From: a virus
Lineage: Duplodnaviria > Caudoviricetes
Virus record (IMG/VR): IMGVR_UViG_3300033076_000478
Coordinates: 1 to 53,856 of that record
Reading direction: 5' to 3' (one strand)
DNA: 53,856 nucleotides
The translations under genes were made by a program, and so were the position numbers. The notes under the pieces were generated by a model that was not told the DNA's origin, searched no databases, and saw only the letters and a program-made list of their open reading frames with translations. Positions 2,074 through 10,734 of the stretch are shown here, one piece after another; positions within the stretch are counted from its first letter, which is position 1, and every line of letters starts with the position of its first letter.

Positions 2074-4401
2074 ATGCCGCTTGTTCCGGGCCTTTCGCCG
2101 TCCATTCGCATGCACGACGAGGAGCAGGCTGATGACGAGATGTCGCCGATGGACGTTCAGGTTCTGAACGCCGACGACGACGTTGACGTTCCTGAGTTCG
2201 CGCAGGATGGTTCGATCCTCAAGATTGACCATGCCGATGGCTCGATCACCCTGAGCCTTGACGGCAAGCCCATTGAGAGCGCCACAGACGCCGCCAACGA
2301 GCCTGCTGGGTGGTTCGACAACCTAGCCGACAAGATCGACAGGGATGAGCTTTATCGCATCGCAGATGACCTTCTGCGGGGCGTGGAGGACGACCTGTCC
2401 AGCCGTGTCGAATGGATTGACGACCGCGCCAACGGCATCAAGCTTCTCGGCCTTAAGGTGGAGCTTCCCGGCGTCCAAGGCGGCCCGGCTGATGGTGCGC
2501 CGGTCGAAGGCATGTCCAAGGTCCGACACCCGATCCTGCAGGAGGCGGTCCTGCGCTTCCAAGCGAACGCCCGCTCCGAGCTTCTGCCTACCGATGGCCC
2601 GGTCAAGATCCGCGACGACGCCAACGGTTCTCCGGTCCTGCGCGACCAGATCGCCGACGCTCTCCAGAAGGACTTCAACCACTACCTGACCGTGGTGGCG
2701 AAGGAGTACTACCCGGACACCGACCGCATGCTGCTGATGCTGGGCTTCGGTGGCACGTCCTTCAAGAAGGTCTACTTCTGCCCGCTGCGGAACCGTCCGG
2801 TCAGCGACAGCGTGGACGCCGATGACCTGATCGTCAACAACCGGGCGACCGACCTGTCCAGCGCGCTGCGGATCACCCACCGGGTGAACCTCAAGGCGTC
2901 CACCGTGCGCCGCCTGCAGATCCTCGGCGTCTACCGGGACATCGACCTGTCGACCCCCAACGAGACGACGCCTGACGCTGCGGCAGAGGCCAAGGCCGCC
3001 CAGCAGGGCATCAGCACGACGACCAACAACCCGAAGGACCGGGACCGCGAGATCTACGAGATCTACTGCGAACTGGACATCAAGGGGTTCGAACACAAGT
3101 ACAAGGGCAAGCCCTCTGGGCTGGAGATCCCCTACCGCGTGACCATCGACGTCTCCAGCCGCGAGGTGCTGTCGATCATCCGCAACTACGACCGGCCCGA
3201 GCCGGGCATGCTGCCCGAGGCGCGTACGACGTTCGTCAAATACACCTTTGTGCCGGGGATGGGCTTCTACGACATCGGCCTGCTGCACATCCTCGGCAAC
3301 ACCGCCAACGCCATCACTGCCGCGTGGCGTGAGCTTCTGGACGCTGGCATGTACGCCAACTTCCCGGGCTTCCTGATCAGCGATGTAGGGGCGCGGCAGA
3401 ACACCAACATCTTCCGCGTTCCCCCGGGCGGCGCGGCGCAGGTCAAGACCGGCGGCCAGAAGATCAGCGATGCCATCATGCCGCTGCCCTACAAGGAGCC
3501 GTCGCAGGCCCTGATGGGGCTGGTGGAGAACATGGCGCAGACTGGCATGCGCGTGGGCGGCACCAGCGAGTTGCAGGTCGGTGAGGGCCGGGCCGACGCA
3601 CCGGTCGGCACCACGCTGGCGATGATCGAGCAGGCCACCAAGATCCTGAACGCCGTCCACAAGCGGATGCACTCGGCGCAGGCCGAGGAGTTCCAGCTGC
3701 TGATGAAGTGCTTCCGGGAACACCCGGAGAGCTTCTGGGACCGCAACAAGAAGCCCACTGTCCAGTGGAACGAACAGCTTCTGCTGCAGGCGTTGAGCGA
3801 CAACGAACTGGTGCCTCAGGCCGACCCGAACACCGCCAGCCACAGCCAGCGCGTGATGAAGATCATGGCGCTGAAGCAGCTGCAGTCGTCCAACCCGCAA
3901 CTCTATGATCAGGTCGCGGTCGACACGGCGGCCCTGCGCGCCATTGGCTGGAACAACCCCGAGCAGTTCTTGGTGCCGGAAGGTCAGCGCAACCAGCCCA
4001 GCCCGGAGATGCTCAAGGGCATCGAGGATCTCAAGATCGCTCACCAGAAGGCCGACGCGGACACCATGCGGGCGCAGGCCGCCATGGCCAAAGCGCAGCA
4101 GCCCAACGCCCCCGCAGCTGGCCCGCAGCAGCCGCAGATGGATCCGATCAAGCTGATGTCCGAGCAGAACAAGGCCCGGCAGATGGAGCTTGCGTACCAG
4201 CGCGATCAGGCCAACGATGAGAACCGCGATCTGGATCGGATGGCGGATCTCCGTCTGGAGCAGATGCGCCTTGACCGGTCCCAGATGGATGACGCCGTCC
4301 GCATGCAGCACGAGAAGGACATGCAGATGGCGCAGCACCACAATGACGTCATCAAGCTGGCCATGCAGATCCAGAACGCCAAGAAGGAGCAGAAGAAGTG
4401 A
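2074..4401 (+). CDS. portal protein
   Basis: 775 aa; HPILQEAVLRFQA, GTSFKKVY, GFYDIGL and APVGTTLA motifs typical of podovirus-like portals; coiled-coil C-terminus. Confidence 0.85.
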   Translation: MPLVPGLSPSIRMHDEEQADDEMSPMDVQVLNADDDVDVPEFAQDGSILKIDHADGSITLSLDGKPIESATDAANEPAGWFDNLADKIDRDELYRIADDLLRGVEDDLSSRVEWIDDRANGIKLLGLKVELPGVQGGPADGAPVEGMSKVRHPILQEAVLRFQANARSELLPTDGPVKIRDDANGSPVLRDQIADALQKDFNHYLTVVAKEYYPDTDRMLLMLGFGGTSFKKVYFCPLRNRPVSDSVDADDLIVNNRATDLSSALRITHRVNLKASTVRRLQILGVYRDIDLSTPNETTPDAAAEAKAAQQGISTTTNNPKDRDREIYEIYCELDIKGFEHKYKGKPSGLEIPYRVTIDVSSREVLSIIRNYDRPEPGMLPEARTTFVKYTFVPGMGFYDIGLLHILGNTANAITAAWRELLDAGMYANFPGFLISDVGARQNTNIFRVPPGGAAQVKTGGQKISDAIMPLPYKEPSQALMGLVENMAQTGMRVGGTSELQVGEGRADAPVGTTLAMIEQATKILNAVHKRMHSAQAEEFQLLMKCFREHPESFWDRNKKPTVQWNEQLLLQALSDNELVPQADPNTASHSQRVMKIMALKQLQSSNPQLYDQVAVDTAALRAIGWNNPEQFLVPEGQRNQPSPEMLKGIEDLKIAHQKADADTMRAQAAMAKAQQPNAPAAGPQQPQMDPIKLMSEQNKARQMELAYQRDQANDENRDLDRMADLRLEQMRLDRSQMDDAVRMQHEKDMQMAQHHNDVIKLAMQIQNAKKEQKK

Positions 4402-7400
4402 ACGACAACGCTAAGGCTATTCGCTCTGCACTTCTGACCGCCCGCCGGGGCAGTGATAGCACAGCGGAAAACATCGCTGACTACGTGGCCGATCTGTTGC
4501 GTCAGGGCCGCGCCAATGAAGTCACCAATGACCTGATCCAGCAGGCTGACCCGCAGCGTCTGCATCACCACTACGTGTCCGGCAACACCGGCCAACCCAT
4601 GCCAATGGACCACGCAAGCCGGATGGCGCGGGCGGCGCAGATGGGGTTTACGGACAAAAGCTACCACGGCACCAAGGCTGACATTCACAGCGTTGGTCCG
4701 CTCCCTGCCAAGGGTACGACGTCCTCGATCTTCGGACCGCAGGATGTTGAGCGTCATGCGTTTTTCTCCTCGCCCGACAAGCGGTTTGCTTCCGATTTCT
4801 CTGGCTTCAACTCCAGTCGCCCCGGGAACCCGAACGTTCACCCCGTCATGACCCGGGGCCAACCCCTCGATCTTTCCGAAGGCTTCACCAAAAACGCCGA
4901 TGCAGACCGGCTGGTTGCGGCTGGCGCTGACCGTGGGTTTGTCCTCAACTACCTCGGAGATCCCGAGACCACTTGGGAACATTTTGACGACCAAAACGGC
5001 AAGGATTTCACTGACATCGCCAAGACGGCTGGATATGGCAAGGTGAACTTCCTTGAGCCGGACGCCGAAGGCCAGAACGTCCATTCCATCGCCAGCCTGA
5101 ACCCCACCGACATCCGCAGCCAGTTTGCTCGGTTCGACCCGCGCCTTTCGCATCTGTCACATCTGTCGGCGTCGACCGGCGGCACGATGGATCTTGCCCG
5201 GGCCGCACTCGCCCGCAAGCGCGCCGGCCCGGAGCATATGCCGCAGAGCGCGTACATGCCGGGTGTGCCGCGTCAGGTGGCTGGGAGCTATGCTGATGGT
5301 GGCAGCGCCTTGCCGAAAGGGTACAGCATTCATGTTGACCCGACGCGCCTTGGCGTTCTGGCCCATTATCGTGGAAAGCCTGTTGGTCAGCTTACGCTGT
5401 CGCGGGACCGCGACACTGGAGATCTTACGGCGTTCCAAATGGCCGTCAGCCCTAAACATCAGCGCAAAGGGTTGATGTCTGCCATGCACGATGCTGCGGA
5501 GCAGGCATTTGGTCCGGTGAAGCCCGATAAGACGCTTACGGATCAGGGCTTTGCTTTCTGGAAGGGTTACCGGCCCGAAGCGGTGTCCGACAACCTCAGG
5601 TTCCATGCTGACAAGCTGATTGGTCAGACGGTAAAAACCCCGTATGGCCCGGGCACCGTGAAGAGTGTTGGCCGCACCGGCATGAACGCCGACCTTACCG
5701 ACCCGGACCGCGCTGGATCTACCGCGTGGGCGCATATCAGGGATAATGAAGACGTTTTGAGGAACGTTGGGGTTGACCCGTCCACGCTGAAATATGCCGG
5801 TGGCGGCGCGGTTGAGGACAGCGACAACTTTCGCAACTGGTTCGGCAACAGCGTGACCCACACCAACGGGACGCCGCATGTCTTCTACCACGGCACCAGC
5901 AAGGACAAGGACTTCACTGGGTTCAACATGGGCCGGCACGGGGTTTGGCTGACCCGGGATCCTGAGGTGGCATCCCAATATGCTGACCAGAACGACAGCC
6001 AAAAGCACGTTTACGAGGGCGGCCGGTACCACAAGGTCAACACCGCAGGCCGCGTCATCCCCCTTTACGTCAAAGCCGAAAACCCCTACCGGGGGGAGTA
6101 TTCCGGGGCTGTGACCGGGAACTACAAAAAGGACCAATCCGACTGGTTCGACCTGCTGCGCCGCAATGGTCACGACGCTTGGATACCGGACAGCAGCAAC
6201 GGCGATCTGGCCGTGGCCCTGAAAGACCCGACCCAGATCAAGTCGATCTGGAACAATGGAAACTTCTCTCCAGCCCAGAAGCATGTGGGGAAAGCTGATG
6301 GAGGACAAGTCGATGAACAAGCTGCCGCCGGAGATCGCGAAGCTGGCCCCCAAGCGGGCGGACTTCCCGGATCAGGAGGAGTACGAGGAGGCGCTGGCCT
6401 TCTTCAAGCACCGGTACAAGCATCTGGCCAAGAAGACCTGATCGGGCTGCCGAAGAACGTCAAGCTGCCCAAGCTTGGCACGTCCATCGTGGCTTCGCAC
6501 GACCCCCGGATCCGCGCCGTAGCCGAGGACTACATGCGTACGGCTGGCATCCCCTACAACCCGCCGAAGACCTACCAGAAGGTGGATCCTGCGCGGGCCA
6601 AGCGGATCGCCGATGCATACGAGGCCATGCCCCACGCCCCGAATGACCCGCTTGTGAAGGCATCGTACGATGCATTGCTGCGGGAGACCAAGGGGCAATA
6701 CGAGGCCATGAAGCGCGCCGGGGTCAATCTGGAGTTCTACCCGGATCCGAACAACGACCCCTACAAGAGCAACCCGCGTCTGGCGGTGGAAGACCTGCGG
6801 CACAACAACCACATGTACGTCTACCCGACCGACGTGGGCTACGGGTCCGGCGAGGCGCTGTCTGGCGCTGACGAGAACCCCATGCTGCGCGACAGCGGAG
6901 AACGCTGGAACGGCAAGCCGGTGCTGTTCAACGACCTGTTCCGCGCCGTCCACGATTACTTCGGGCATGCCAAGGAAGGTGTCGGGTTCCGCGCCGACGG
7001 CGAGGAGAACGCATGGCGGTCCCACGCCGCGATGTTCTCGCCCCTCGCCCGGATTGCTCTTGGCACCGAAACCCGTGGCCAGAACAGCTGGCTCAACTAC
7101 GGCCCGCACGGCGAGAAGAACCGCACCGCGCCGACCGAAGACACGGTGTTCGCGGACCAGAAGCTGGGCGTCCTGCCTCACTGGGTCCACCATGAGGGGG
7201 CCGAGGACTTCATCAGCCCGCAGGAGCGGCAGGAGATGGCCCGGATCTATGCCCGCCACGGCAAGGCTGGTGGGGGCGCTGAGACGGGCGAGAAGTACCC
7301 TGTTTGGACCCGCAGCGAGTTCACCCCGGAAGGGTTCTCGAAGGCCCTCAAATCGTCTCCCTCGGCCTCCACGCTGACCCAGTACGACCCCTCAGAGGTG

Positions 7401-8000
7401 CGGACCCTGTCCAAGGCTGGCAAGTTCGAAGGCTACAAGCTGGCAGGCCATGACGCCTATTTCGGCATCAAGAACGGCGCGGACTACGCCGATGACTACG
7501 GTTTCGAGCATCCAGCCCTGACCGGCAAGGAGAAGGCCCTTGTCGGTGTCGTGAACAACGACAAGAGCGCCAGAGGCGTGGGCGACAGCCTCATGAAGGA
7601 GGCGATCAAGCGGGGCGTCAGCGTTCTGGACGCCTTTGCAGTGCCATCGGACAAGTTCCCGCAGGGCTTTCTGCCCCACTTCTATGGCAAGCATGGCTTC
7701 AAGGAGCTTGGCCGGATCCCGTTCGATCCGAAGTACGTGACGCCCGAGCAGTTCTCCGACATGAAGAAGTCTTGGGCGCAAGCGGGCTGGGACGAGAAGC
7801 GCCATCCGCTGCCTGACGTGGTGATCATGAAGCGGGCTGCCGGCGGCTTTGTTCCGGGCCAGCACCGCCTGACCGAACGCTTCCACAATGGCGGCGCTGC
7901 GGCGCTGATGAAGCGGCAAATCAGGCCGGTCAGCAAGGCTCTGGATTTGTCCCGGCGCGCGACTGGTGCTAGGATGACGCTCAAACTGCAAGGGGACTGA
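4398..8000 (+). CDS. large polyvalent protein: two ART-like domains, two GNAT-like domains, one putative zincin-like domain
   Basis: Two YHGT domains (the second FRNWFG...YHGT...PTQIKS), V.P.HQRKG, HDYFGH..GEE and FYGKHGF motifs; domains are separated by xxGG linkers. Confidence 0.7.
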   Translation: MNDNAKAIRSALLTARRGSDSTAENIADYVADLLRQGRANEVTNDLIQQADPQRLHHHYVSGNTGQPMPMDHASRMARAAQMGFTDKSYHGTKADIHSVGPLPAKGTTSSIFGPQDVERHAFFSSPDKRFASDFSGFNSSRPGNPNVHPVMTRGQPLDLSEGFTKNADADRLVAAGADRGFVLNYLGDPETTWEHFDDQNGKDFTDIAKTAGYGKVNFLEPDAEGQNVHSIASLNPTDIRSQFARFDPRLSHLSHLSASTGGTMDLARAALARKRAGPEHMPQSAYMPGVPRQVAGSYADGGSALPKGYSIHVDPTRLGVLAHYRGKPVGQLTLSRDRDTGDLTAFQMAVSPKHQRKGLMSAMHDAAEQAFGPVKPDKTLTDQGFAFWKGYRPEAVSDNLRFHADKLIGQTVKTPYGPGTVKSVGRTGMNADLTDPDRAGSTAWAHIRDNEDVLRNVGVDPSTLKYAGGGAVEDSDNFRNWFGNSVTHTNGTPHVFYHGTSKDKDFTGFNMGRHGVWLTRDPEVASQYADQNDSQKHVYEGGRYHKVNTAGRVIPLYVKAENPYRGEYSGAVTGNYKKDQSDWFDLLRRNGHDAWIPDSSNGDLAVALKDPTQIKSIWNNGNFSPAQKHVGKADGGQVDEQAAAGDREAGPQAGGLPGSGGVRGGAGLLQAPVQASGQEDLIGLPKNVKLPKLGTSIVASHDPRIRAVAEDYMRTAGIPYNPPKTYQKVDPARAKRIADAYEAMPHAPNDPLVKASYDALLRETKGQYEAMKRAGVNLEFYPDPNNDPYKSNPRLAVEDLRHNNHMYVYPTDVGYGSGEALSGADENPMLRDSGERWNGKPVLFNDLFRAVHDYFGHAKEGVGFRADGEENAWRSHAAMFSPLARIALGTETRGQNSWLNYGPHGEKNRTAPTEDTVFADQKLGVLPHWVHHEGAEDFISPQERQEMARIYARHGKAGGGAETGEKYPVWTRSEFTPEGFSKALKSSPSASTLTQYDPSEVRTLSKAGKFEGYKLAGHDAYFGIKNGADYADDYGFEHPALTGKEKALVGVVNNDKSARGVGDSLMKEAIKRGVSVLDAFAVPSDKFPQGFLPHFYGKHGFKELGRIPFDPKYVTPEQFSDMKKSWAQAGWDEKRHPLPDVVIMKRAAGGFVPGQHRLTERFHNGGAAALMKRQIRPVSKALDLSRRATGARMTLKLQGD
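6313..6441 (+). CDS. 42-aa small protein overprinted inside the polyvalent gene (different frame)
   Basis: GGAGG at 6300-6304, ATG 6313, nearly all codons end in G/C. The host frame over this stretch is a low-complexity linker. Confidence 0.65.
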   Translation: MNKLPPEIAKLAPKRADFPDQEEYEEALAFFKHRYKHLAKKT

Positions 8001-8001
8001 C

Positions 8002-10734
8002 ATGGCGGACGTCAAGCGCGCACTCGATCTGGTGTCTCAATATCAGGATCCGGCCAGCAAGAAGATGGAAGGCTGGAACTGGAGGCCCCTGAAAGACGTC
8101 CAGAACGACCTTGAAGGCCTCCCGAGCATCCCCGGCCACGTCGAGGACTTCGGGGCCTTCATGGACGAGATGGCGCGCAAGGCGTCCACCAAGGGCTTGT
8201 CGCCCCGCGACCTGATCAAGGCCTATGTGATCACCCGATCAAGCATCCAGCGGCGCGCCCAGACGGCTGACAAGCTGCGCGCCGCAGGCTTCCCGCTTCA
8301 TCCGAGCATTTCGGGTCAGGTTCGACCCGAGGGCGCGATGGCGGAATGGCTCAAGACCCCGATTGGCCAGCGCTATTTGGACGCTGCAGAGGTCGGAAAG
8401 GTCGATCCCGAGGCCGTTGCACACGCCCAGAAGGTCATGAAGCCCTTCGGCCTCAACGCCGAAAGCGATGCTCTGCCTTGGGCAGCCCATAACCTGCACG
8501 ACAAGGCCGGCGTGGTGTCTGACATGGTCAAAAGGGCCATTTCCAACGACAGCCCGGTCGCGGAATGGCGCGAATTTGGCAAAAAACTGCACGGGATCGG
8601 CACCGCAAAGGCCGGTTTTGTCGCCTCCATGCTGGGCCGGGGCGATCAACCCACGCTGGACGCCCGTCAGGTGATCCTTCAGACCGGAATGCCGACGTCA
8701 GAAGCCAAAAAGCCCCTCGCCCGGGCTGGTTTTGAGGGCGTGGACCGCCTTGCGGCGCGCCAAACGGCACTGAACCCCAAGATGCAGTCCGGCCTTGAGC
8801 CTTTCCGGCAGCACCTGACCCACCATGCGATCTGGGACAAGGTCGGAAACGAGCAAACCACGCATCAGGATGTCATCGACGCCATGCGGCATGCTGCTAC
8901 TGGCGGGCGCATCGGGTTCTCCACAGGTGGAAGGTCCAATGGTACCCCGAGCGACGAGATCTTCGCCCATGCCATTGCTGCTCTTGGCATCCCCGGTCAC
9001 GATCTGGGCAACATGAACCCGGATTTCCTGAAGGCACTACAGAAGGTCCACACCCCGTTCAGCGCTGACCCTGAAGTGGTGAAGAAAGCCCTCGCCATTT
9101 CTCAGAGCCTCGTCCCGTCCATGAGCGCTAAAAAGGGCGAGAGCAGCGCCTATTACAACGTGGGGCAGAAATTCGCACCGCCGGACGTCAAAACGACCAT
9201 TGGCGATATTCCGGGCGTCAAGCCGCTTGAAAAGCGCCCGATGTCGTGGGAGGACTTTTATCATCAGGCCAAAGGCGGCACCCTGATCAACGTCGGTGGT
9301 GACCGGTCGAACCTTGGTCGCCTGACCCACATCAACGGCGAACCGCTGAACTGGCCGGTCGACCTCCATGCCGGCCCAAAGTACATGTTGGAACCTAATC
9401 CCGGCGCGGTATGGGCAAACTCCGCCGCCCACACCACCTCGTTCAACAAGAAGATCCGCGAGGCTGCCGAAAAAGGCCCGGTTTATGGCGTCTACAGCCC
9501 TATGGGTCCGAGCGCAGTTGACAGTTCGCACAACATGTTCGACGCCCTGATGGCGCAGATCGACAAGAACAAGATTGACCCGGCAGACGCCAAGCTCTTC
9601 GATGATGCCCTGCGCTCGGGAAGCCACATGCCAGACAAGGCTGACAAGCCGAAGGGCGCGGAGGCTATGAAGGGCTGGCCCGGCATTTTGAACCCCAAGG
9701 AAGCCTCCGAGTTTGCCCGCAACCTGCCCGGCACACACCGCTCTGCAATCGTGGGGATGATGGACAAGAAGGGCTGGATGGACAAAGGCTTCCCCAGCGT
9801 GGGTATGACCCGCGTTGCCATCACCGATCCAGAAGTGCTTAAGGCTCCGGGCAATATGTTTGGGCACAGGATTGTCCAGTTCGACCCGGACACCGGAAAG
9901 GCCGAGGAGAAAGCGTTCAAGCACTCCACCTATCAGGAGGCCACGCCCGGAAAGTACGTCGGCGATGTCCCTCTGGTGCAGCGTCAGTACGTCATGCCGG
10001 ACGTCATGGAGAAGCTGACGGGACGCCCCGACTGGCTTGAGAAAGGCTTGATTGCCCATCCTTTCTCTGACCAGCCGACCGGGAGATCGACAATCCGCAA
10101 GATGTTTGAGGAGCAGAAGCAATCCCAGCCGATCAACCAGCGCATGCTGGACAGCATCATGACCGGAATGCAGCGCCAGAAGGAATACGGCTTCAAGCGC
10201 GGCGGCGCGGTCAACCCGACCGATGCCCAAAAGGCCGCAGGCAACTACCGGAAGGATCACATCAGCTTCCAAGGATTACCGATCAGCATCGAGACCCGCA
10301 AGGGACAGACGCGCAGCGGGACCAGCCCTGACGGCCGGAAGTGGTCGGTCAAGTTGCCGTACGATTACGGCTACATCAAGCGCACTGAGGGCGCGGATGG
10401 CGACCATGTCGACGTCTGTATCGGGCCGGATCACCAGTCCGAACACGTATTCATCGTTGACCAGCAGGATCACCGCACCGGCAAGTTCGATGAGCATAAG
10501 GTGATGCTGGGGTACCGCACCAAATCCGAGGCTGAACACGCCTACATGGCCGGTTTCAGCGACGGAAAGGGCAAGCTTCGCATCCAGTCTGTCGTGGGGA
10601 TGCCGATGGCTGATTTCAAACGCTGGATCCGGCACTGCAGCACCAAAAAGCCTGTCAAGGGCCAGTCCCACATCGAACGTGCATTGGCAGCTGCTTCGGT
10701 GTACTCTGGCAAGACAAACCGGGACGCCGGATAA
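8002..10734 (+). CDS. polyvalent protein: HhH-GPD-like domain, unknown domain, inorganic pyrophosphatase (InPase-like)
   Basis: LHGIGTAKAGFVASMLG...TLDARQ; C-terminal PTDAQKAAGNY...YGYIKRTEGADGDHVDV...FDEHKVMLG. Confidence 0.7.
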   Translation: MADVKRALDLVSQYQDPASKKMEGWNWRPLKDVQNDLEGLPSIPGHVEDFGAFMDEMARKASTKGLSPRDLIKAYVITRSSIQRRAQTADKLRAAGFPLHPSISGQVRPEGAMAEWLKTPIGQRYLDAAEVGKVDPEAVAHAQKVMKPFGLNAESDALPWAAHNLHDKAGVVSDMVKRAISNDSPVAEWREFGKKLHGIGTAKAGFVASMLGRGDQPTLDARQVILQTGMPTSEAKKPLARAGFEGVDRLAARQTALNPKMQSGLEPFRQHLTHHAIWDKVGNEQTTHQDVIDAMRHAATGGRIGFSTGGRSNGTPSDEIFAHAIAALGIPGHDLGNMNPDFLKALQKVHTPFSADPEVVKKALAISQSLVPSMSAKKGESSAYYNVGQKFAPPDVKTTIGDIPGVKPLEKRPMSWEDFYHQAKGGTLINVGGDRSNLGRLTHINGEPLNWPVDLHAGPKYMLEPNPGAVWANSAAHTTSFNKKIREAAEKGPVYGVYSPMGPSAVDSSHNMFDALMAQIDKNKIDPADAKLFDDALRSGSHMPDKADKPKGAEAMKGWPGILNPKEASEFARNLPGTHRSAIVGMMDKKGWMDKGFPSVGMTRVAITDPEVLKAPGNMFGHRIVQFDPDTGKAEEKAFKHSTYQEATPGKYVGDVPLVQRQYVMPDVMEKLTGRPDWLEKGLIAHPFSDQPTGRSTIRKMFEEQKQSQPINQRMLDSIMTGMQRQKEYGFKRGGAVNPTDAQKAAGNYRKDHISFQGLPISIETRKGQTRSGTSPDGRKWSVKLPYDYGYIKRTEGADGDHVDVCIGPDHQSEHVFIVDQQDHRTGKFDEHKVMLGYRTKSEAEHAYMAGFSDGKGKLRIQSVVGMPMADFKRWIRHCSTKKPVKGQSHIERALAAASVYSGKTNRDAG

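Follow-up and report, generated by a model that had tools for sequence, protein, structure and literature searches.

The window analysed here, 53,856 bp at its full length, is the virus record IMGVR_UViG_3300033076_000478 of IMG/VR (Duplodnaviria; Caudoviricetes), with an estimated completeness of ~90% (CheckV) and a GC content of 61%. It contains a gene for a 1200-aa protein, P0001, in which Pfam recognizes a GNAT domain (residues 314-370) and an ART-PolyVal domain (residues 489-620). These are followed by a 256-aa domain carrying an invariant HDYFGH motif, hereafter the HDYFGH domain. With several unrelated effector-type domains in one phage polypeptide, P0001 is a polyvalent protein. Within its gene, between the ART-PolyVal and HDYFGH domains, a 42-codon open reading frame (ORF) is nested in the +1 frame relative to the main frame (F0). 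We consider it likely that this ORF is a genuine protein-coding gene; the HDYFGH domain is the predicted binding partner of its product.

The nested ORF runs from an ATG at position 6313 to a TGA and translates as MNKLPPEIAKLAPKRADFPDQEEYEEALAFFKHRYKHLAKKT, and the main frame of the polyvalent gene stays open across the same bases, reading KADGGQVDEQAAAGDREAGPQAGGLPGSGGVRGGAGLLQAP... (Table 1). The initial annotation had pointed to GGAGG 8 nt ahead of this ATG, produced by an unusual choice of codons in a KADGG linker string of the main frame, and all of these elements are present in the sequence. The linker codons GAT GGA GGA are the sole instance among the [AD]GG sites of the ORF; at the sites beyond the nested span, GGT, GGC or GGG occurs, a QAGGL site inside it is encoded GGC GGA, and GGA makes up 16 of the 125 glycine codons of the enclosing ORF. 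Only 2 of the 33 out-of-frame ATGs in the polyvalent gene have GGAGG or AGGAG upstream, the nested ATG among them. The second of the two opens a 60-codon Pro/Arg-rich ORF in the +2 frame inside the HDYFGH domain (7013-7195), which has a chance-like look. The GC content at codon positions 1, 2 and 3 is 0.62, 0.31 and 0.95 in the nested frame; the corresponding values are 0.95, 0.62 and 0.31 for these bases in F0, and 0.62-0.64, 0.45-0.46 and 0.72-0.84 for the polyvalent ORF on either side. The nested ORF thus has the G/C-ending codons typical of the genome, as first described.

The helical nature ascribed to the peptide is borne out by an AlphaFold2 (AF2) model of the peptide alone, with a predicted local distance difference test (pLDDT) score of 83.1 and helices at residues 6-9, 21-34 (the main helix) and 36-41. 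No family for the 42-aa peptide was found in Pfam, PHROGs or NCBIfam (in Pfam none at E<=1, nor for the 72-aa stop-to-stop frame), and the ESM Atlas gave no usable match. A tetratricopeptide repeat (TPR) was considered and rejected: the top row among PDB sequences, a consensus TPR, has an E value of 0.077 across 16 residues, Pfam has none at E<=1, and the model is a single long helix. A match of the peptide profile to an anti-CRISPR chain among PDB sequences (E 0.13) was taken as chance.

Conservation of the peptide and its linkage to the adjoining domain, which the initial annotation had proposed to check by tblastn, were found in a second phage. Among 50,697 phage records, the peptide has one real match, MW202675.1 (65.7% identity over 35 aa, E 5e-7); the remaining five records have E values of 4-5. 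In MW202675.1 the peptide is encoded in the +1 frame of an annotated 847-aa ORF, behind AGGAGG-N8-ATG and directly before an HDYFGH domain, and the N-terminal part of the MW202675.1 protein is unrelated to that of the window protein. The annotation of this record, the only deposited phage record checked, lists the enclosing ORF and not the nested one.

A first set of loci, fetched by the HDYFGH domain, took in 80 of the 91 confirmed viral loci and a further 6 loci of species genomes, and 88 sequences were profiled. The peptide profile matches in 44 of the 88, every time in the +1 frame and 104-215 nt ahead of the domain start; 28 of these 44 are rows of the profile itself, and two of the 44 sequences without a match have too little upstream sequence to judge. 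On both strands of ~6 kb per locus, the profile had no match at any other position in the 88 sequences. The reverse search of viral contigs, by the motif alone, gave 17 loci, 15 of them on contigs new to the set, and in 17/17 the motif is in the +1 frame and the HDYFGH domain comes directly after it. All fetched loci together provide 48 non-redundant nested loci, with the nested ORF in the +1 frame in 48/48 and an F0 stop in the overlap in 0/48. It is therefore conservation, rather than ORF length, that carries the case against chance, given that the peptide is found in the same relative frame in all 48 loci.

The start signals are retained as well. A Shine-Dalgarno (SD)-like motif stands 3-15 nt ahead of a start codon in 45 of the 48 nested loci (36 ATG, 5 TTG, 4 GTG), and one of the three others is truncated by the end of the locus; in the aligned set, the motif precedes the start in all 30 non-redundant loci. 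For other out-of-frame ATGs in the same genes, the baseline is 199/1367 (15%), although the best candidate start was picked in each locus, so that the counts for the nested gene are somewhat inflated. With peptide, SD and start conserved, and with purifying selection in the nested frame alone (see below), the reality of the small gene, as claimed at the outset, is strongly supported by these comparisons.

The GGAGG could alternatively stimulate a programmed +1 frameshift with no internal initiation; the product would then be a shortened form of the polyvalent protein with the conserved helix at its end. Intragenic SD-like sequences do stimulate frameshifting in prfB and dnaX, and the +1 frame of the window is open for 30 codons upstream of the nested ATG. 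However, a frameshift would have no need of the start codon that follows the SD-like motif in 45/48 loci. Moreover, nested-frame stops upstream of the start vary between loci and are often only a few codons away (L003, L010 and L044), and no shared slippery or stall site or heptamer was seen by eye in the aligned loci, for which no formal signal scan was made. We regard this alternative as very unlikely. A -1 frameshift near the nested stop, by which peptide and HDYFGH domain would be joined, was also dismissed, as the nested stops are located -44 to +46 nt from the domain start with no common site.

Selection by frame was examined in the aligned set. In the 25-codon ungapped core (30 non-redundant sequences), the entropy at nested-frame codon positions 1, 2 and 3 is 0.88, 0.95 and 1.33, and in the flanking domain it is 0.68, 0.60 and 1.48 by F0 position. 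The most variable position is thus the nested-frame third in the core and the F0 third in the flank, and the wobble periodicity switches to the nested frame there. The core reads P-K/R-R-x-D/N-F/Y-x-S/T-x-E-E-Y/F/W-E-E-A-x-x-F/W-F/Y/W-x-H/N-R; P13 and E26 of the peptide are invariant, and F30/F31 form an aromatic pair. Over a contiguous 19-codon block, the Nei-Gojobori ratio of nonsynonymous to synonymous differences per site (pN/pS) in the nested frame is 0.56 across the whole set of 30 rows and 0.40 among the 18 closest, versus 1.18 and 1.49 in the main frame and 1.10 and 1.08 in the third (+2) frame. The replacements in the nested frame are conservative (Y/F/W, K/R and D/E/N) on diverged DNA, in genomes of 36-46% GC and down to ~50% domain identity.

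These values bear on whether the +1 frame is translated at all: it could be a relic of an ancestral frameshifted segment, or its conservation could stem from a constraint on nucleotides (an RNA or DNA element, or codon bias). The evidence on the +1 frame is comparative or predicted, and high GC makes long off-frame ORFs frequent, both of which leave room for such a reading. Purifying selection at the amino acid level is nevertheless confined to the +1 frame, with the conservative replacements described above, and the ORF is retained in the 36-46% GC genomes together with its SD and start. Furthermore, the sole Rfam row at E<=1 for the nested region is a lncRNA (E 0.85), taken as chance, and the minimum free energy of the region on RNA folding is not below that of shuffled sequences (z +0.57). 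We place this explanation lowest of all, as scarcely credible. In L055, a low-GC locus (36%), no other +1 ORF in the 1004-codon gene is as long as the nested one.

The main frame over the nested bases had been described as off-frame filler, and its pN/pS values agree with this; yet it is stop-free in 30/30 loci, and 26 of the 30 have at least one stop in the +2 frame. When synonymous codons were redrawn so as to preserve the nested protein, F0 remained open in 11% of trials on average. The difference between 30/30 and the ~11% expected argues that the fusion protein is real. Both frames are maintained, the nested one as a constrained protein and F0 as a stop-free but unconserved linker. In some lineages, the nested +1 ORF is longer, 135-189 codons (L048:1544-2032, L066:2510-2956 and L101:2156-2644, also L100, L088 and L098); those of L048 and L066, with 163 and 149 codons, are the longest in their genes, and that of L101 is within this size range. 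L048, L066 and L101 have an additional conserved helical N-terminal region, where the main frame also has conserved stretches, and this region may be a longer dual-coding zone.

Table 1 Features of the polyvalent gene, its nested gene and related loci. Positions refer to the window unless a locus is named.
Feature	Position	Strand	Description
Portal protein gene	2074-4401	+	phrog_1216, E 1.3e-27; directly upstream of the polyvalent gene
Enclosing polyvalent gene, P0001, main frame (F0)	4398-8000	+	1200 aa, GTG start
ART-PolyVal domain of P0001, residues 489-620	5862-6257	+	PF18760, E 3e-13; located before the nested gene, without linkage to it across loci
KADGG linker codons of F0, with GGAGG and spacer	6288-6312	+	Shine-Dalgarno-like GGAGG at 6300-6304; 8-nt spacer to ATG 6313
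F0 'passenger' linker QVDEQAAAGDREAGPQAGGLPGSGGVRGGAGLLQAPVQASGQEDLI	6306-6443	+	Nested-gene bases read off-frame; Gly/Ala/Pro/Gln-rich, open, unconserved as protein
Nested 42-codon gene, +1 frame	6313-6441	+	ATG 6313-6315, TGA 6439-6441
Conserved nested core, 25 codons, P13 to H37	6349-6423	+	Covered by alignments, codon-phase entropy and pN/pS
HDYFGH domain, P0001 residues 683-938, 256 aa	6444-7211	+	Predicted partner of the nested protein; uncharacterised
Invariant HDYFGH motif, domain residues 170-175	6951-6968	+	Inside helix 162-176; invariant alignment columns
Free-standing motif genes, 59-70 aa	L118:824-1018, L119:460-642, L147:836-1033, L121:2462-2668, also L114		No overlapping long ORF; 61-69 aa in the four with positions

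HDYFGH is found widely in phage polyvalent proteins. Invariant columns number 49 in its alignment, and polar residues are frequent among them; examples are N163, D164, R167, H170, D171, H175, K177, R183, E187, H194, E209, R211 and Q213-S215, and this pattern looks like that of an enzyme. The domain has no match in Pfam (LPD families included), NCBIfam or PDB sequences, and its sole PHROG match is phrog_3170, of unknown function. The AF2 model (27-row alignment) has a pLDDT of 86.9 and a predicted template modeling (pTM) score of 0.87. Foldseek found no PDB chain at E<=1e-3. A zincin-like metallohydrolase (zincin, YbeY or minigluzincin fold, with a metal-binding His motif) was considered for the domain; among 48,161 chains compared with VIA-align, the best rows are weak and far below a meaningful Z: YbeY (7y7o_A; Z 2.8, root-mean-square deviation (rmsd) 4.0, 105 aligned) and the abylysin zymogen (4jiu_A; Z 2.6, rmsd 4.2, 88 aligned). 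The fold is unmatched among the databases searched, which does not by itself establish that it is new. Matches to the fold in BFVD are many, all of them phage polyvalent or uncharacterised proteins, and the ESM Atlas gave only unnamed viral clusters. Rhodococcus phage E3 gp205, annotated as 'structural protein', includes the domain.

The initial annotation had suggested that the peptide is cognate to one of the two adjoining domains, ART-like or HDYFGH. The linkage data favor only the latter. In the 10 loci scanned for upstream domains, these differ: ART-PolyVal in the window and L010, Phage_L5_gp82 in L014, GGDEF in L032 and none recognized in 6/10. The domain downstream of the nested ORF, on the other hand, is always HDYFGH in the nested loci. 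Co-folding, also proposed at the outset, supports binding of the nested peptide to this domain, with an ipSAE of 0.77 as against 0.01 for the best of three controls. The ipSAE mark is reached by 58/80 solved complexes and 2/110 mismatched pairs, a calibration that is approximate here as custom alignments were used. The three runs have at least 78% of contacts in common, and the partner pLDDT is at least 81. The predicted contacts on the peptide are residues 25-37 and the N-terminal residues 1-4, 7, 9, 11-13, 15 and 17. Those on the domain are residues 103-111, 114, 127, 129, 163, 167, 181-184, 187, 213, 217 and 227-239. Among them, N163 and R167 share helix 162-176 with the HDYFGH motif, and G181, F182, R183 and E187 belong to an invariant loop just after that helix.

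The nested peptide appears to belong to a real protein family that extends beyond overprinting. A profile search of 1.84 billion representative proteins gave 253 matches at E<=1e-3, mostly of 43-200 aa. Some of these are the nested ORF itself, called on fragments (P0003, P0004 and P0006); gene callers have thus independently predicted such small proteins. In other matches, the motif is located at the N- or C-terminus of larger proteins (e.g., P0122, P0073 and P0089). A few matches in several stretches (P0076) were set aside as TPR-like false positives. Some motif proteins have extra C-terminal domains (the P0061 type); Pfam gave no family in 8 of 10 such proteins, and scans of viral and metagenome contigs found no relative. 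The only name attached to their clusters is that of a Sphingomonas hypothetical protein. In metagenome contigs, a motif scan identified 39 loci, 11 of which have HDYFGH downstream and the motif in the +1 frame. Genes next to free-standing or fused motif genes include those for HNH-HIT, C-5 DNA methylase and FGase.

Several observations weigh against a gene whose product serves the HDYFGH domain, in addition to the inflated start counts. The case for translation is built wholly on comparison and prediction. The length of the nested ORF is unexceptional in GC-rich loci, the window included; the same gene has longer +1 ORFs, and ORF length was discarded as evidence for such loci. The nested gene is present on 44 and absent from 35 of 79 non-redundant HDYFGH domains, and on a quick maximum likelihood tree of these domains, its presence requires at least eight gains or losses, at least two of them forced by well-supported branches. 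The HDYFGH domain therefore works without the nested gene in many phages. The enrichment of conserved residues at the predicted interface, though in favor of binding, is marginal (13/30 contact residues are at least 90% conserved, versus 73/256 in the whole domain; p=0.048). The catalytic-looking residues H170, D171, H175, K177, E209 and R211 are absent from the contact list, and with H170, D171 and H175 outside the contacts, the model does not show an active site to be occluded. Finally, HDYFGH is missing downstream in 28 of the 39 metagenome motif loci, and for 21 of these the sequence extends 600 nt or more beyond the motif, enough to show the domain. Among the 24 HDYFGH-less motif loci examined, 16 are free-standing, that is, without a same-strand overlapping ORF of at least 100 aa, and five of these ORFs measure 59-69 aa. 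In L133:390-1421 and L138:254-1285, the motif forms the N-terminus of a 344-aa protein, in frame with a C-terminal Kinase-PolyVal domain (PF18762). These free-standing and kinase-fused homologues weaken the reading of the peptide as a dedicated HDYFGH inhibitor.

The same observations would fit a real gene whose product does not act on HDYFGH. The peptide could be a general docking or targeting helix of phage effectors (a packaging adaptor or a host-factor binder) that is found in the HDYFGH leader solely through the tolerance of this linker for overprinting and through the joint transfer of the two as one module. The 28/39 metagenome loci, the free-standing genes of 59-70 aa (L114, L118, L119, L121 and L147), the terminal motifs on other proteins (the Kinase-PolyVal fusions of L133 and L138; P0122, P0073 and P0089) and the many HDYFGH domains without a nested gene all speak in its favor. 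It fits less well with HDYFGH being directly downstream in 17/17 viral loci found by the motif, with the constant position and frame in 48/48 nested loci, and with the confident co-fold on the domain (0.77 versus 0.01 for the best control). We consider a general docking helix improbable, though less so than a frameshift product, and retain a genuine gene with HDYFGH as the predicted partner.

With respect to its history, the nested gene appears to be old and repeatedly lost, and repeated gain would be less likely. The free-standing homologues support the view that the polyvalent ORF came to read a pre-existing small gene. An older small-gene family with free-standing members may have existed first, and the polyvalent ORF may later have read through one of its genes off-frame. 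The earlier suggestion of a small gene 'absorbed into the fusion' is accordingly only partly upheld: the free-standing homologues and the unconstrained enclosing frame favor it indirectly, but no locus has a free gene ahead of HDYFGH. Four HDYFGH genes with short leaders of 100-125 codons (L022, L024, L026 and L031) were inspected for such a free-standing gene directly upstream, and none was found; main-frame start candidates lie upstream of the nested ORF in 4/4, so that the ORF is embedded there as in every other nested locus.

Two observations on individual lineages may be added. The records of the Synechococcus phage MinM2 and the Planktothrix phages Pag-Yong1 and Pra-JY27 (OQ594354.1, OL906435.1 and PP438419.1) have an equal length of 65,014 bp and equal match statistics, and may be one genome deposited three times; Pag-Yong1 (L106 = OL906435.1:1011-4727) has a divergent nested ORF of 69 aa, behind AGGAGG-N5-ATG at L106:1112, which matches the HMM at E 1.8e-7. 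A clade of HDYFGH domains without the motif (L046, L047, L049, L052, L053, L054 and L084) has open +1 frames of ~70-200 codons that reach into the domain, with the string 'PETE.DG..A..LR' in common, over about -290 to +139 nt around the domain start. These unusually long frames could represent another nested ORF, or could simply follow from conservation of the main frame.

We propose the following course of events for the nested gene. On the late mRNA, ribosomes in the main frame would translate positions 6306-6443 into a flexible, Gly/Ala/Pro-rich stretch that joins the ART-like domain to the HDYFGH domain, and other ribosomes would start at GGAGG-N8-ATG and yield the free 42-aa peptide. The main helix of the peptide, residues 21-34, would dock, in trans, onto a conserved face of this latter domain, formed according to the co-fold by residues 103-111, 163, 167, 181-187, 213, 217 and 227-239, beside the helix that carries the HDYFGH motif. 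More speculatively, the peptide may regulate its cis-encoded partner as a 'safety catch' or inhibitor: bound to the effector domain, it would prevent activity in the producer cell, and packaging or ejection of the polyvalent protein would strip it off. A putative role as regulator or inhibitor, with the effector quiet until packaging or ejection, is a tentative proposal to which we give somewhat less than even weight. A more specific version is rather doubtful. The peptide would then be an out-of-frame intragenic safety catch (a trans antitoxin or pro-peptide), made from the same mRNA, for an injected effector of unseen fold. The motif P-x-R-x-x-F-x-S/T-x-E-E-F/Y-E-E-A-x-G-Y/F-W would be a widespread docking module that pairs small proteins with polyvalent effector domains, whether nested, free-standing or fused.

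The polyvalent gene belongs to the head-morphogenesis module, where it is placed by the adjoining portal gene, and the C-terminal region of P0001 matches phrog_2563. Short strings resembling [YK]-A-[DG]-G-G repeat at apparent domain boundaries of P0001 (5286-5312, 5787-5813, 6288-6314, 7257-7283 and 7830-7856; residues of about 300, 467, 634, 957 and 1148), and only the copy at residue 634 makes an SD for a nested gene; the other copies may be processing sites or vestiges of earlier gene junctions. The next gene (8002-10734) encodes a 910-aa protein with a C-terminal domain of ~150 aa that matches PHROGs annotated as minor head protein, virion structural protein, DarB-like antirestriction and endolysin; the product is probably a second virion-packaged multi-domain protein.

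Among known systems, the nearest is that of phage lambda, in which Rz1 is described as lying within Rz in the +1 frame, with mutual binding of the two products (PMC6139136). Like Rz1, the nested gene is small, is completely enclosed by a longer phage gene of the same strand, occupies the +1 frame, has a separate start and is of a kind usually missed by gene callers. Binding of the two products is another point of resemblance, predicted here from the co-fold. With the nesting, an SD and start of its own and both frames maintained, it can be regarded as an embedded gene of the Rz1-in-Rz type. It differs in that the enclosing gene is a multi-domain virion effector gene rather than a lysis gene, and in that the nested product is predicted to be a soluble helical peptide instead of a lipoprotein. 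The nested frame here is also the ordered and constrained one, the enclosing frame being a disorder-like linker. In addition, only the embedded form was found beside HDYFGH, whereas spanin genes also occur in overlapped and separated forms.

In Rpn nuclease genes, a small protein is encoded inside the gene for a longer, potentially toxic enzyme and is proposed to restrain it (PMC10400941). The nested gene is similar in encoding a small protein within the gene for a potentially toxic enzyme, with restraint being putative here. It is unlike the Rpn arrangement in that its product is out of frame and has no residues in common with P0001. The Rpn small proteins are reportedly read in the frame of the long protein and have the sequence of its C-terminal part; with its product in the +1 frame, the nested gene was not assigned to the Rpn/RpnS type.

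Polyvalent proteins of phages and conjugative elements have been proposed to be delivered with the DNA and possibly to need processing or activation (Iyer et al. 2017; PMC5512222). The enclosing gene agrees with their description, being multi-domain, with ART-PolyVal and GNAT, and adjoining a portal gene; its HDYFGH domain, unlike the described domains, falls outside the Pfam LPD families derived from that work. The words 'overlapping', 'frameshift' and 'linker' are absent from the main text of PMC5512222, and no nested gene is described there. Viral overprinted genes are described as encoding two proteins in one stretch, with one frame ordered and constrained and the other disorder-like (PMC8227390). 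The same division is seen here over the same bases, although the short embedded frame, with its free-standing homologues, is apparently the older one, and the long enclosing frame apparently the newcomer. In full-text literature searches, no account of a gene nested within a polyvalent protein gene was encountered, which is not proof of absence. Compared with these arrangements, the out-of-frame gene described here is set apart by its place in a linker of a multi-effector virion protein, by the enclosing frame being the passenger and by its predicted partner, the next domain.

Embedded genes of this kind go unreported by gene callers, which leaves the family invisible in phage annotation. The nested gene represents deeply conserved dual coding in which the long gene, and not the short one, appears to be the off-frame passenger. 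Its predicted binding provides a first functional handle on a widespread, uncharacterised domain of polyvalent proteins, and the wider motif family, with its free-standing, nested and kinase-fused members, may flag more pairs of effectors and partners. Should the peptide regulate the domain, this would reveal how injected effectors are prevented from doing harm while phage particles assemble, and would extend the 'antitoxin within toxin' theme by an out-of-frame form.

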